Of a stretch of 55,284 nt of DNA, positions 38,258-47,752 are shown piece after piece. This DNA comes from a virus (taxonomy: Duplodnaviria > Heunggongvirae > Uroviricota > Caudoviricetes). Positions within the stretch are counted from its first letter, which is position 1, and each line of letters starts with the position of its first letter. The translations under genes and the position numbers were made by a program. The notes below the pieces were generated by a model, which was not told the origin of the DNA, did not search any database, and saw nothing but the letters and a program-made list of their open reading frames with translations. The stretch spans positions 1 through 55,284 of IMG/VR virus record IMGVR_UViG_2648501186_000003. The stretch is one strand, 5' to 3'.

Positions 38258-38959
38258 TTATTCTGATTCTCGCTCAAAAAACGAGCTAATGAGGGGAAGC
38301 CAATCCTCTGACACTTCGCGAGGTCGCGGTTTGCCGTGGAAAAAGATTATTCGGCAGTCTTTTGGTAATGCCCCATTCCCCCTGGAGTAACGCGCGCTCG
38401 CATATTTCGAACCAGGTTCCACAACATCGGCCTTGTAACTTACAAACCATTCTGGATACAGATCCTGAAATGCTGGTGTATCATCGCCCATAACCTTCCG
38501 TAAGAACCCCTGATCACCCCAGCACTCAGTAGTGACACAACGAGAAATCCAACCTTCCGGATCTTGCCAGAATGAACTCCAGATATGCGCTTTTACACTA
38601 TTTGGTATCCACAGGGCACCGCTACCACGATATTGTGGATGGTAAAAATCCCTAAGCATGGTGAAGCTGGTTGGTGGATTCTCAAGGATTGGGCGTATAT
38701 CACCGGCAATAACCGTGTCCAAATCCAGATAGAACAGATCATCGGTTATATCCGGTCGGAACAACTCGATTTTCGCCCACCAGCCACGGCACTTTTGCCA
38801 CTGGTTGATCAACGGGACAACTTTGACGCCAGGTACATGTAAACGCTTCAGGTCTGTCAGGCAAATAATTTCATAGCCTTTTGGCAGTTGATTAACCAGC
38901 CACTGCACATCGGAAGCGTTATAGTCACCACCAGAGCGAAGAACTAAAGCAATCTTCAT
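38258..38959 (-). CDS. Possible DxD-type (GT-A-like) glycosyltransferase
   Basis: Motif [17 protein letters not shown] resembles GT8-type DxD regions; weak, motif-level only. Confidence 0.4.
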
Positions 38960-39648
38960 GCTGCACCATCACCTTTCACTTTCATCAATGTCAGGTTTCC
39001 GCAAAATACGGCACCAGTGTCGATATAATGCTGATTCCAGAATGTCTTCGGGCTTTTCACCGGAGTGTGACCAAAGATAAAACGATCTGCGCCCGAAATT
39101 TCGCCACCAATATCATCCATCGAATCACTGATACGCTCGCGCGCCCAGACAACGTTGAAAAGCGGCACCTCCTTACCGAATTGATATTCATTATCCGGAT
39201 AGTCGGCATGGGCTATAACGATAGTTTCTTGCCCGGTGTTCAACTCAATGATATAGGGCAGTCGTCTTACCAACTCCACCAGCGCCCAGGCTAATATTTC
39301 CTGATCAGTGTCCAGCATGAAGAACCATTGTCCGCCATTCATTAGCCAGTTATTCACGTTGCCATCTGGACTTAACGCATCAATCATCAGCCACTCATGG
39401 TTCCCCATCACTGCCCTGAACCAGGGCATCTGCAATAGTTCCAGACATTCGACATTTTCAGTACCGCGATCGATAAGGTCGCCGACCGATATCAGTAAAT
39501 CCTGCGCCGGGTCAAAATCCACACGATGGAGTTCGGACATCAGTCTGGTGTAGCAACCATGCAGATCACCAACAACCCAGACATTCCTGTATTTGGTACC
39601 GTCGATACGGTGATAAATTGTGGGTGCCATCATGTATTCTTCAGCCAT
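38956..39648 (-). CDS. ppp: Ser/Thr protein phosphatase (lambda-phosphatase-like metallophosphoesterase)
   Basis: GDLHG, GDLIDRG and GNHE motifs. Confidence 0.85.
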
Positions 39649-40256
39649 TCTTTAAGAGTCATCTGCGGAATACCTCCCATTTTCCCGCATGAAACAACGT
39701 CAATCTGTTCACGCGCAGACTGGAATAACAAAGGCAGGTGACTTAGATTTTTTGGCGTGCCGCCGGAGTGAACGCGTGGTTCTTGTGTAGCGTCAACGCC
39801 CACCAGGGCGACATGTTTGAATCCGATATGGAAAGCCAGGTTCAGAGCGCCATATGCACTATTGCCGCTGGCAATTTCATTCTCATCTTCGCAAAGTCCG
39901 AAATGTGCGGACCAGCGCCACGCCCACCACTCGGGAGAATTCGTATTTTTTGGCTCCATGCCACGTTCAGCCACACGACGGAAGCACAGAACGCCGTCTC
40001 TGACTTCACGTTCTTTAACATCGGGTAGTGCCATGCAATAACAAACACCACGGCGACGGCGGCCACGACCAACGCGCCGCATATTGTCTGGCGATGGATC
40101 AAGTGTGAAAAAATAAGAAGCGCGGTTCAGCCAGTCGATGGCCCCATTGACCGCTATAATCGGCACTCCGCGCGGCGCAACAAAGTTTGCGGCGCTTGGG
40201 CCACTGCCGACGATAATAACGCGATCACTGCCTCTAAATTTATTCTTGGGAAACAT
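39630..40256 (-). CDS. GT42/CstII-like (Maf/DUF115-like) putative glycosyltransferase, paralog A
   Basis: IIVGSGPS...IIAVNG and [24 protein letters not shown] motifs. Confidence 0.5.
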
Positions 40257-40816
40257 TGAATTGCACTGCTCCTACTTGCATTCAAAATATGTAAATCTGC
40301 GTGTTTTTTGCGGGTATCCAGGAACTGCTGTTGCCATTTTGAAATAGACACCTGCGTTGGATTCCGTAGGGCTTGAGGGTGTGCTCCATGCCAATGAAGG
40401 CCGTTTTGCAGAGAACAGTCATAGCCGACTAATACCACTACCTCAGCCCCTGATTCAGCAGCCAGACTGATAGCCTGCGCGCCGCTATTTACCCCTTCCG
40501 CCGGTCCACAATATCGCCTGTACTCCAACGAAAATGATTTCGCCGCCGCCAGGTTGGCTGTCACTTTGCGGAATCTCCCTCCCGGTATGGTGGATCCGTA
40601 TTGCTTCCACCATGACAAATCACCGGCGTATAAGGCATAAATGTCATCGAACATCTGCCAGGAATTGTTAACTGCGATGATTGAACAGCCAGTTTTTTCT
40701 ATAGCAGCACAGTCCTCACGAGTGAGTGACGGACCGCTACCGACACAAAAAACAGTCCTAGTCGCCCTGGGTGGTATGTTCATTCTCAGCTGCAAATTCA
40801 GCCTCCAGGCGAGCAT
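40154..40816 (-). CDS. GT42/CstII-like putative glycosyltransferase, paralog B
   Basis: CVGSGPS...IIAVNN and NSGAQAISLAAESGAEVVVLVGYD motifs; 3' end overlaps paralog A by about 100 nt. Confidence 0.5.
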   Translation of the reverse strand: MLAWRLNLQLRMNIPPRATRTVFCVGSGPSLTREDCAAIEKTGCSIIAVNNSWQMFDDIYALYAGDLSWWKQYGSTIPGGRFRKVTANLAAAKSFSLEYRRYCGPAEGVNSGAQAISLAAESGAEVVVLVGYDCSLQNGLHWHGAHPQALRNPTQVSISKWQQQFLDTRKKHADLHILNASRSSAIQCFPRINLEAVIALLSSAVAQAPQTLLRRAECRL

Positions 40817-40979
40817 TCATTTCAGCGATTACAGGGTCCACTACAGCATCTGTTTCCTGTTCATTACGCGGCATGACCGATGCCAGAAACTCATAATTAA
40901 CCTTGGATGACACGATTATTCTCCCGATGTTAAAGCGCACTACCACAAAGAGCGTATATGCACTAATTAATTTATTATT

Positions 40980-46079: not shown

Positions 46080-46704
46080 TTTGACAGGGAAGTATCGGGC
46101 TGTAGTGGTAAGCGTCGATGACCCTAAAGGTCTGATGCGTACACAAATACGCGTTGTCGGCATGATGGATGGGTTACCAGATGCCTCATTGCCGTGGGCA
46201 GAAGCTATATTGTCCAATGCAAACACGTTTTCACCATTTCTGCCCGGCGATAAAGTATGGGTAGAATTTCCCTACAATGGGGATTCTCGATGGCCATTGA
46301 TAATCGGTTATGCACAGGATGCATCCGGTGGCGCTCCCAATGTGCCTCCTGAAGCGTCAGGACAAGGTGAAGGCTATGTACCGCCTGAAGTCGAAGGTGC
46401 ACCAGCACAACCATCAACCAGCGCCAAAAAAGACTTTATTTCGTCGCGGAACGGACTAATGGAGGTCCGGACGGCGGGCGGAGCCTGGGCCGTTACGCAC
46501 TTGAAAAGTGGAACAACAATCGGGTTCAACGAGGCCGGGGAGTTATATGCCATTTCTCAAGGTCCGGCATTCATCTCTTCCGCAGGAAATCTCGATATAA
46601 AGTCAGGCGCGGATGTCGCCCTGAAGGCAGGGGGAAGTATGGCGATAGAGGCCAGCGGGAATCTATCCATAAAAGCCGCTCAAGTCTCTGTTGACAAGGC
46701 TTAA
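46072..46704 (+). CDS. Baseplate spike/assembly protein (gpV / Mu gp45-like)
   Basis: N-terminal OB-like region ([21 protein letters not shown]) and Gly/Ser-rich repetitive C-terminus. Confidence 0.55.
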
Positions 46705-46706
46705 GA

Positions 46707-46735
46707 AAAGCCCGGCGTTCGGGCTTTTCTGTTAT
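46707..46735. terminator. Bidirectional terminator between convergent genes
   Basis: aaagcccg-gcgttc-gggcttt with T-runs on both strands. Confidence 0.6.
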
Positions 46736-46750
46736 GACGGGTTCAATTTT

Positions 46751-47752
46751 TTATCCGTTACCGCGCGACGGTTTCTGCGTGACAAACGTCTCAAGCATCT
46801 TTTCCGCAATTGCCGACCAGGTGTGACACTGGACCTTTTCAGCATTTTTCACGCGATCAACGCGAGCAATAACCTCATCCCAATCAATCCGCGACTTGAT
46901 AACCATATGGTTCACCAAAGCCAGGCGATCTGGCGGAAGGCAATCGGGAGGCGTTAATACCAACGCCCCGCACATTGCCGCCTCAAGTACAGTTAATCCA
47001 AGGCTTTCGGGATGCGTAACGATAAACACGTCACTCTTACGCAATTCAGCTGCAAATTCGGTTGCTGGTACCGGCGTCCGTCTGTATGGGGTTACCGATA
47101 TATTCCCCGGATCAATGGTAATCAATCCGTCATCGGTCAACGTTCTGGCCTCATACGGAACGGTCAGACGCTGAAGGTTCATAAGGATACTTAAGGAGTG
47201 ATCAAACCCACTAACATCAAATGCAGCGTGGTCTACAAAAATACGCAGAACATCGTCTGTTTTGGTTTCCAGATGGAACAGATCCTGATTCGCTGCCCAT
47301 CCAACATGTTTGTTAAAGCGATTATGACGCTCTAACCTGCCTGGATTATCCAGGTACCGCCAGGTATCATCGCGGACAGTAAAAGTAATATCGACTGGTG
47401 CCGAATCCAGCATAGAACCGTCGTATACCTGGGCTACCCATCCAGTGAATCGACGACGCAGTTGCACGCCTATTTCCCTGGGCACCGTAGTAAAATACCG
47501 CAATCCTGGCGCTAAAATGGCTTTCGCGGAACACGAGGTCGCAGCGGTCAACACAGCTTCAACATAATCCTCCGGGCTTTCGACGCCGGGGGAATATGGA
47601 CGATGGTATTGCAATGTTACCCCTGCCTCACTAAAGGCGCAGGCCAGGTTGTAAGCCCACATTTCCGTATATGTTTTCACATCACTGATAGCTTCAAATT
47701 TTCGCCCAATGATCAGGATGTTCATCGGCTTTTCCTCATTCCATTGCATCAA
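46751..47752 (-). CDS. GT-B (GT4-like) glycosyltransferase-like protein
   Basis: EX7E-type motif THPESLGLTVLEAAMCGALVL; stop/start overlap with ban. Confidence 0.5.
   Translation of the reverse strand: MMQWNEEKPMNILIIGRKFEAISDVKTYTEMWAYNLACAFSEAGVTLQYHRPYSPGVESPEDYVEAVLTAATSCSAKAILAPGLRYFTTVPREIGVQLRRRFTGWVAQVYDGSMLDSAPVDITFTVRDDTWRYLDNPGRLERHNRFNKHVGWAANQDLFHLETKTDDVLRIFVDHAAFDVSGFDHSLSILMNLQRLTVPYEARTLTDDGLITIDPGNISVTPYRRTPVPATEFAAELRKSDVFIVTHPESLGLTVLEAAMCGALVLTPPDCLPPDRLALVNHMVIKSRIDWDEVIARVDRVKNAEKVQCHTWSAIAEKMLETFVTQKPSRGNG

Follow-up and report, generated by a model that had tools for sequence, protein, structure and literature searches.

Glycosylation of virion proteins by phage-encoded enzymes has been demonstrated for the capsid and tail-tube proteins of mycobacteriophages (Che8 and its relatives; Freeman et al. 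2023, as cited in PMC11256854 and PMC10877033). The transferases of that system are phage-encoded and non-essential, as are those considered here. They belong to other enzyme families, act in Actinobacteria and have demonstrated glycans, whereas the glycans of the module described below are predicted. This module, formed by the P1 genes pmgO, pmgP, pmgQ and probably dbn, lies within positions 38258-47752 of a 55,284-nucleotide (nt) tailed-phage sequence (IMG/VR record IMGVR_UViG_2648501186_000003), the whole of which is referred to as the window. With a probability of roughly 0.5, these genes constitute a late-expressed, non-essential module that builds a glycan on protein, perhaps on the virion.

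The individual enzymes resemble several described families, each with its own points of difference. PmgO and PmgP, at ~200 amino acids (aa), correspond to the catalytic domain only of the Maf flagellin O-glycosyltransferases (Magnetospirillum Maf, PDB 5mu5; PF01973, MptE-like/DUF115); they differ further from Maf in forming a paralog pair and in lacking nearby nonulosonic-acid synthesis genes, at an identity of 17%. CstII and Cst-I of family GT42 give no significant sequence match (E about 0.3), and an Asp takes the place of CstII N51. Archaeal MptE (6-hydroxymethyl-7,8-dihydropterin pyrophosphokinase, PDB 8sd5) is a kinase of folate/pterin synthesis, whereas the module neighbourhoods hold no pterin hint. 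The KdoIII transferase WaaZ of Escherichia coli K-12 lipopolysaccharide (LPS; PF27901) has the superfamily motifs SGPxS...AVNG...GxD in common with PmgO and PmgP, but it is a 283-aa enzyme that acts on lipid A-core and is only weakly similar (14-16 bits; hhalign probability 8-18%). PmgQ shares its fold and DxD with GT8 enzymes (glycogenin, Skp1 alpha-galactosyltransferase, GlyE, LgtC and WaaJ/WaaO); however, its identity to them is about 15%, no Pfam GT8 match is obtained, its 233 aa make it shorter than most, and it forms a family of its own, PHROG 1962.

Over positions 38258-47752 the window is collinear with P1 (NC_005856) at 98.5% identity, with 147 mismatches in 9495 nt and zero indels, and it also matches SJ46, RCS47 and P7 at 98-99%; the window is that of a P1-type phage. 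An earlier sequence-only reading had placed four transferase-like open reading frames (ORFs) here, with the motifs GSGPS...AVN, YLDLDTV and EX7E and an overlap of about 100 nt between two adjacent paralogs. All of these are present, and in the P1 gene map the four ORFs are pmgQ, pmgP, pmgO and dbn:

38258-38959, minus strand, pmgQ (233 aa)
38956-39648, minus strand, ppp
39630-40256, minus strand, pmgP (208 aa)
40154-40256, minus strand, overlap of the pmgO 3' end and the pmgP 5' end, 103 nt and out of frame, with pmgP in the -1 frame relative to pmgO
40154-40816, minus strand, pmgO (220 aa)
46751-47752, minus strand, dbn (333 aa as listed)

About half of the span assigned to the finding by the sequence-only reading (41953-46704, plus strand) consists of tail and baseplate genes that are unrelated to it, and dbn is separated from pmgO, pmgP and pmgQ by 6.5 kb. 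The description of this capacity as one not usually attributed to P1-type phages was overstated, since P1, P7 and RefSeq records already carry transferase-like labels. The P1 record calls dbn a 'possible glycosyltransferase', P7 uses the gene name glt, and RefSeq labels pmgQ 'glycosyltransferase' and pmgO 'alpha-2,3-sialyltransferase'; the P7 record names the run hdmA-D, 'head morphogenesis', and had already likened HdmB to orf7 of phage D3. Because the genes and such labels were known, the raw observation is not new. What is new is the module itself, which is broadly conserved, varies in its make-up and has minimal Maf-like enzymes at its centre; its PmgO and PmgP paralogs can occur fused, and ppp is an unrelated insertion. 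The module is usually found in the head or lysis region of tailed-phage genomes, with adhesin islands as a second setting. No study of the PmgO-PmgP-PmgQ module was found in the literature searched.

The conservation of the module was assessed in a census of 24 loci with a PmgP-type gene, taken from a one-genome-per-species collection and from look-ups of individual homologs (loci are numbered with the prefix L). A scan of viral contigs yielded only near-identical P1 copies among its best 80 matches. In 21 of the 24 loci a PmgQ-type gene is located within 1.5 kb of the PmgP-type gene, the three exceptions being truncated contigs, and a PmgO-type gene is found within 5 kb in 17. The hosts include Enterobacterales, Pseudomonas, Alloalcanivorax, Zhongshania, Microbulbifer, a metagenome-assembled genome of Methylophilaceae, Commensalibacter, Ochrobactrum, Brevundimonas and the Bacteroidota genus Sinomicrobium. 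Taxonomically, the loci cover Gamma-, Beta- and Alphaproteobacteria as well as Bacteroidota, and all hosts with a name are Gram-negative. PmgO-like genes are also present in 73 records of isolated phages, D3-like and jumbo phages included. A conserved module of PmgP and PmgQ, in most cases joined by PmgO, recurs in many Gram-negative tailed phages. Since PmgO occurs with PmgQ in the absence of PmgP (L113), and PmgP with PmgQ in the absence of PmgO (L110, L112), the core of the module is one or two Maf-like enzymes together with a GT8-like enzyme. The earlier proposal that the transferase genes act together is strengthened by this co-occurrence.

The inclusion of Ppp in the set did not hold. 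This NinI-like Ser/Thr metallophosphoesterase (Pfam Metallophos, 5e-16; PHROG 246) has a homolog near the module in three of the 24 loci, all P1-like (L086-L088), and it is an unrelated insertion between pmgP and pmgQ in P1-likes, outside the module. A fused form of the two Maf-like enzymes is encoded on phage contig L003 (10001-11131), where the 376-aa protein P0051 has a PmgO-like first half and a PmgP-like second half. It is followed directly by a PmgQ homolog, with a further DxD transferase besides. On the strength of this single fused protein, PmgO and PmgP probably work as a pair.

The position of the module differs between phages along a few recurrent lines. In Pseudomonas L109, Zhongshania L096 (capsid confirmed by Pfam) and phage D3 it directly follows the HK97-type major capsid gene; Ochrobactrum L110 and the Martelella-like L113 have one or two small ORFs between the capsid gene and the module. 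All five loci continue after the module with the remaining head-completion or tail genes. This placement after the capsid gene in several prophages contrasts with the Che8-type transferase genes, which are near the 3' end of the genome (PMC11256854). The module follows the lysis cassette in L003, Alloalcanivorax L111, Buttiauxella L101 and Citrobacter phage phiNP, and it sits among terminase, portal and head genes in L097, L098, L100 and L102. Partner enzymes vary as well: methyltransferases occur inside the module in L096, L103 (FkbM type), L111 and L113, and a PHROG 'glucosyltransferase' lies downstream of it in L098. Such variable partners are expected of clusters that assemble different glycans.

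In phage D3 (L116, 5637-6355), a single uninterrupted PmgO-like ORF right after the capsid gene has been annotated as two, orf6.5 and orf7. In phage PAJU2 (L117, 4974-6917), the PmgO-like homolog ORF010 was deposited as 'structural protein'; a 275-aa protein and an S-adenosylmethionine (SAM)-methyltransferase-like protein follow it where PmgQ would be. An extra DxD family of ~190 aa (GT-A-like, with a weak match to Pfam Nucleotid_trans) adjoins the module in five loci and has no member in the window:

11254-11835 of L109
11757-12335 of L003
8919-9467 of L097
2168-2728 of L095
968-1527 of L099

Outside tailed phages, five genomes of the Pseudescherichia group and Serratia plymuthica carry PmgO-, PmgP- and PmgQ-like genes intermingled with genes for Big_1/invasin-type adhesins (loci L108 of Pseudescherichia, also L090-L094, and L004 of S. 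plymuthica). The Pseudescherichia island has no phage genes nearby. This version of the module may be an adhesin glycosylation system. One PmgO-like gene of the adhesin islands lies directly downstream of a 1169-aa inverse autotransporter.

The placement of the module bears on the proposal that P1 attaches sugars to its DNA as a protection against restriction, in the manner of T4 glucosylation. DNA-modifying glycosyltransferases are known from phages, and the genes are expressed in lytic growth. Against this, all non-P1 phage loci examined have the module in head or lysis clusters and not among genes of DNA metabolism, and it recurs in adhesin islands that are not phage. Its neighbours included no hydroxymethylase or similar gene for base modification, and the best structural relatives of its enzymes act on proteins or glycans. 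A DNA target is therefore highly improbable, and the gene context favours a protein or virion target.

Within the core, the family profiles of PmgO and PmgP align over 164 columns with an hhalign probability of 98.1% (E=1e-13), in a comparison made without the fusion protein P0051. Pairwise BLASTP gives a weak match (E=0.004) across the GSGPS...AVN segment, which is present in both. As the sequence-only reading had it, the two are by these alignments true but distant paralogs. In their joint alignment the P of GSGPS, the N of AVN, a later D, the S of NS(G/A) and GxD are invariant, and PmgP contains an additional insert of ~45 aa relative to PmgO. Conserved His residues follow GxD (H141, H143 and H146 in PmgO; H173 in PmgP). 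Where CstII has N51, the aligned residue of PmgO is an invariant Asp, and its PmgP equivalent is the invariant D53 of a TLD motif; an Asp at this position could bind metal. The long consensus that had been offered for the pair, beginning (S/N)xxYxxA, fits only loosely. PmgO homologs begin about 12-20 residues downstream of the listed start, and with the internal ATG (M12) at 40783 as the start of pmgO the pmgN/pmgO overlap would be 26 nt instead of 59.

The AlphaFold2 (AF2) model of PmgP is of high quality, with a predicted local distance difference test (pLDDT) of 95 and a predicted template-modelling score (pTM) of 0.92. Foldseek ranks MptE first and CstII second for this model, with nothing below E=1e-3; GT29 sialyltransferases and thiamine pyrophosphokinase are also listed among the structural matches. 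Against Maf (PDB 5mu5), 159 residues align out of the 632 of the Maf protein, at 17% identity. PmgP is thus predicted to be a single-domain enzyme of the Maf/CstII/MptE fold, and PmgO, as its paralog, is predicted to share this fold. The likeness to PF01973 extends to the structure of the catalytic domain, while the N- and C-terminal flanking domains typical of Maf are missing from both proteins (208 and 220 aa against 632). In the Pfam scan, where families at E<=0.1 were taken as matches, MptE-like (PF01973) scores 20.9 bits with PmgP and 23.4 bits with PmgO against a cut-off of 34.6, and precomputed PF01973 matches exist on a subset of homologs in both families. The single-domain sialyltransferase fold of GT42, with its nucleotide-binding loop and GxD, is recognizable; however, GT42 is not among the Pfam matches at this threshold. 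Of the two profiles run against CstII chains, that of PmgO reaches E about 0.3, which is not significant, and that of PmgP gives no match. PmgO belongs to PHROG 4603, 'alpha-2,3-sialyltransferase' (4e-74), and a single-sequence PDB search was uninformative for it. The original CstII/GT42/Maf-like assignment accordingly stands at the level of fold, with PmgP Maf/CstII/MptE-like, but not as GT42 membership. The profile and structure searches that had been proposed as a check placed none of the proteins in an unrelated fold.

As GT42 is missing from the Pfam matches, and Maf and a pyrophosphokinase are the closest structures, a transferase chemistry of PmgO and PmgP is putative. Instead of glycosyltransferases they could be pyrophosphokinases or kinases, similar to MptE or thiamine pyrophosphokinase, with a small molecule, a sugar or a glycan as the substrate to be phosphorylated and the other enzymes building on or around the product. 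The name of the sole Pfam family matched, MptE-like, and the matches of PmgP to MptE and thiamine pyrophosphokinase agree with this, as would metal binding by the invariant Asp (the N51 position in PmgO, D53 in PmgP). Yet the constant partners of the two proteins are glycosyltransferases and methyltransferases, and no pterin or thiamine pathway genes occur in any locus examined, which makes a kinase role rather improbable.

The overlap between pmgO and pmgP raised the question of a frameshift artefact. Full-length PmgO and PmgP proteins fall in clusters of 382 and 982 sequences, each reading frame of the overlap has its own independent homolog family, and a shorter overlap is kept in diverged P1-likes (about 47 nt in Pantoea alvi L088, where the protein identities are 58% and 73%, and about 38 nt in Chimaeribacter L089). 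On these three grounds the overlap is judged real, and an artefact is ruled out by the retention of its core in the diverged P1-likes. In L088 and L089 the conserved C-terminal helix of PmgO (CFPxxxLExxIA) overlies the variable N-terminus of PmgP. The conserved core of PmgO stops at ...CFPRxxLExxL; beyond it, P1 PmgO runs on for ~19 aa of read-through that is not conserved. In other loci the counterparts of pmgO and pmgP lie end to end (L096, L100), have a few codons of overlap (L109, L102) or are fused (L003).

A slippery heptamer, A_AAT_TTA, occurs at 40235-40241 on the minus strand in the pmgO frame and is suited to a -1 shift into pmgP. A programmed -1 frameshift yielding PmgO-PmgP was rejected: the heptamer is absent in L088 and L089, and the slip would delete the conserved C-terminal helix of PmgO. 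By our own estimate about 13% of such overlaps carry a canonical heptamer by chance, and chance is probably the explanation of this one.

These results also meet the suggestion that the four genes are unrelated accessory genes of one phage, joined only by an artefactual overlap. All four are dispensable, dbn is 6.5 kb away and the tail of P1 pmgO is non-conserved, as would be expected of such a set. Nevertheless, the genes co-occur across phyla and in a fused form, and each frame of the overlap has the independent homologs, large clusters and persistence in diverged P1-likes described above. This explanation has a very small chance of being correct and is already contradicted by the census.

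In PmgQ, the residues D79 and D81 of YLDLDTV are invariant in 68 homologs, and this DxD aligns with that of Skp1 alpha-galactosyltransferase (alpha-GalT). All 22 PDB matches of the family profile are GT8 enzymes, the best being Skp1 alpha-GalT (6mw5, E=6.8e-8), followed by GlyE and glycogenin; these three leading matches are all protein-glycosylating enzymes. The AF2 model (pLDDT 95.3) retrieves GT8 or other retaining GT-A enzymes throughout the top 50 of Foldseek, at probability 1.0, template-modelling (TM) scores of 0.5-0.6 and E down to 5e-9. The protein matches PHROG 1962, 'glycosyltransferase', at 1.4e-126, and no Pfam family at E<=0.1, the GT8 model included. A GT-A fold nearest to GT8 and a conserved DxD are therefore both in place, and PmgQ is predicted to be a GT8-like retaining GT-A glycosyltransferase, in line with the DxD transferase that had been suggested for the 233-aa ORF.

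In Dbn, E249 and E257 of the EX7E motif (ESLGLTVLE) are invariant in 68 homologs, as are D174, H175, H247 and G262. Pfam Glycos_transf_1 scores 25.0 bits, just below its cut-off of 26.4, and reaches E<1e-3 in 9 of the 68 family members. The EX7E segment of the profile matches PDB 8xsg, a 'putative glycosyltransferase' (E=5e-4), and a single-sequence PDB search was uninformative. By its sequence motifs Dbn is a divergent, putative glycosyltransferase of GT-B/GT4-like type, which agrees with the original proposal for the 333-aa ORF. Residue 10 of the listed ORF is where the Dbn homologs begin, so that the true start of dbn is probably the M10 ATG at 47725, with GAGGA upstream, and not the TTG at 47752 or the P1-annotated ATG at 47749. 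Homologs of Dbn occur near PmgP and PmgQ homologs in Serratia L004 and Buttiauxella L101.

The regulation of the module was read from the P1 annotation and gene map, which place the following further elements in and beside the region:

40758-40946, minus strand, pmgN, a small ORF of 62 aa and the first of the packed run pmgN-pmgO-pmgP-ppp-pmgQ
40957-40973, plus strand, C1 repressor operator Oppp (Op83), differing from P1 at 1 of 17 positions in the window
40980-41558, minus strand, pmgM
40986-41012, promoter PpmgN, adjoining Oppp
41561-41806, minus strand, pmgL
41864-41880, C1 operator O26, identical in the window
41895-41913, minus strand, late promoter LPpmgL, upstream of pmgL-pmgM and the transferase genes, with 1 mismatch in the window
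41953-46704, plus strand, tail and baseplate genes 26, 25, 7, 24, 6 and 5
47749-49113, minus strand, ban

Given the C1 operators O26 and Oppp and the late promoter LPpmgL upstream, the run is silent in the lysogen and expressed during lytic growth, including its late phase. Its genes are tightly packed, with successive overlaps of 59, 103, 19 and 4 nt, an arrangement that fits coupled translation. On K-12, pmgO, pmgP, ppp, pmgQ and dbn are non-essential for plaque formation both by CRISPR interference (CRISPRi) and by tabulated knockouts, while the same table lists pmgN as essential by CRISPRi and non-essential by knockout (PMC10695390). The CRISPRi score of pmgN may reflect a polar or off-target effect on neighbouring genes; pmgN is confined to P1-likes.

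Among the neighbouring products, PmgM resembles a VRR-NUC-type nuclease and PmgL a DksA/TraR-like zinc-finger protein, and outside P1-likes neither accompanies the transferase module. The product of pap (window 36115-36621) matches the phosphatase domain of polynucleotide kinase-phosphatase (Pfam HAD_PNKP, 7.5e-12), and Ppp shows a weak match to bacterial Pnkp. These two matches point to two phosphoesterases of nucleic-acid end-repair types in this P1 region.

The transferase chemistry, donor, acceptor and benefit that we infer for the module can be set out as follows. PmgO and PmgP would act as a pair, transferring sugar from a nucleotide-activated donor supplied by the host, and this Maf-like pair would make the first or characteristic transfer. 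The donor may be an ulosonic acid activated with cytidine monophosphate (CMP). PmgQ, as a retaining enzyme dependent on DxD and metal, and the GT4-like Dbn would add hexose-type sugars, using donors activated with uridine or adenosine diphosphate (UDP or ADP). These steps would be replaced or extended by the methyltransferases and additional transferases that other phages encode. The acceptor would most likely be a protein of late infection, possibly a virion protein. A protein acceptor is favoured because Maf and the top GT8 relatives glycosylate proteins, and because of the placement in head clusters, the association with adhesins and the mycobacteriophage precedent.

To our knowledge, CMP-Kdo is the only CMP-activated ulosonic acid donor of E. 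coli K-12. No nonulosonic-acid synthesis genes stand alongside the module in any locus examined, and all named hosts are Gram-negative, so that CMP-Kdo becomes an attractive candidate donor. The weak similarity to WaaZ is compatible with such a donor and does not prove it.

The same similarity is the starting point for a different target, the LPS core. Here PmgO and PmgP would correspond to WaaZ, PmgQ to the GT8 core glucosyltransferases WaaJ/WaaO and Dbn to the GT4 enzyme WaaG; with the LPS core, the P1 receptor, altered or truncated, progeny or superinfecting phage would be kept from adsorbing to infected cells and debris. Among 14 Waa proteins of K-12, WaaZ is the only one matched by the profiles of both PmgP (6e-6) and PmgO (1.4e-5), with matches that are collinear at the N- and C-terminal motifs. 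The fused homolog P0051 bears a faint precomputed match to Pfam WaaZ_KDO_III; within the Waa set, PmgQ matches WaaJ best and Dbn WaaG. KdoIII glycoforms produced through WaaZ carry a truncated outer core (PMC6358824). All named hosts are LPS-bearing, and the module adjoins lysis genes in four loci. The WaaZ scores are, however, weak (15.6 and 14.2 bits; hhalign probabilities of 18% and 8%) and no better than that of the PmgO profile against CstII. Expression is lytic only, and LPS made so late would barely alter the cell surface; placement in head clusters and beside adhesin genes would moreover be left unexplained. Remodelling of the LPS core is consequently unlikely, more plausible though it is than a kinase role. 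An assignment of PmgO and PmgP as WaaZ-type Kdo transferases was not retained, the likeness being at the superfamily level only.

Several observations weigh against the preferred reading of a late, protein-glycosylating module. E. coli K-12 is not known to produce sialic, pseudaminic or legionaminic acid, so that the natural donor of PmgO and PmgP is uncertain. PmgO and PmgP of the window are both under the Pfam threshold, and PmgP (208 aa) is without the flanking domains of the 632-aa Maf. The fusion of PmgO and PmgP comes from a single contig of one sequencing run, in which an assembly indel is possible. Post-lysis and post-capsid sites are also common insertion points for accessory genes. 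A search for the acceptor found no Big_1-like sequence in P1 or the phage loci, and no acceptor feature common to the capsid proteins of module-bearing prophages was obvious on comparison. In the paper on the P1 virion proteome neither these genes nor glycosylation is mentioned (PMC9024508), and the literature searched yielded no assay of PmgO, PmgP, PmgQ or Dbn and no report of virion glycosylation in Gram-negative phages.

For these enzymes, the virion as the specific target is a tentative proposal, clearly weaker than that of a protein target in general. Equally tentative is the broader model in which P1, D3 and many Gram-negative tailed phages glycosylate their own virion proteins, likely the capsid, with minimal Maf-like enzymes and host nucleotide sugars, possibly CMP-Kdo, and in which some Enterobacterales have co-opted the module for Big_1/invasin-type adhesins.

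P1 is among the most used phages in genetics, yet no role has been established for its pmg transferase operon. Knockouts of P1 are already available (PMC9024508), and the module is small enough to be transferred; the lead is concrete and cheap to test. The adhesin-island version points to a possible unrecognised pathway of adhesin glycosylation in Enterobacterales, and the small Maf-like enzymes, if they act as proposed, would be added to the glycoengineering repertoire. In conclusion, if the reading is true, virion glycosylation would extend from mycobacteriophages to Gram-negative phages, as the first case outside actinobacteriophages, and it would bear on the immune recognition of therapeutic phages and maybe on bacterial defences that sense capsid proteins.

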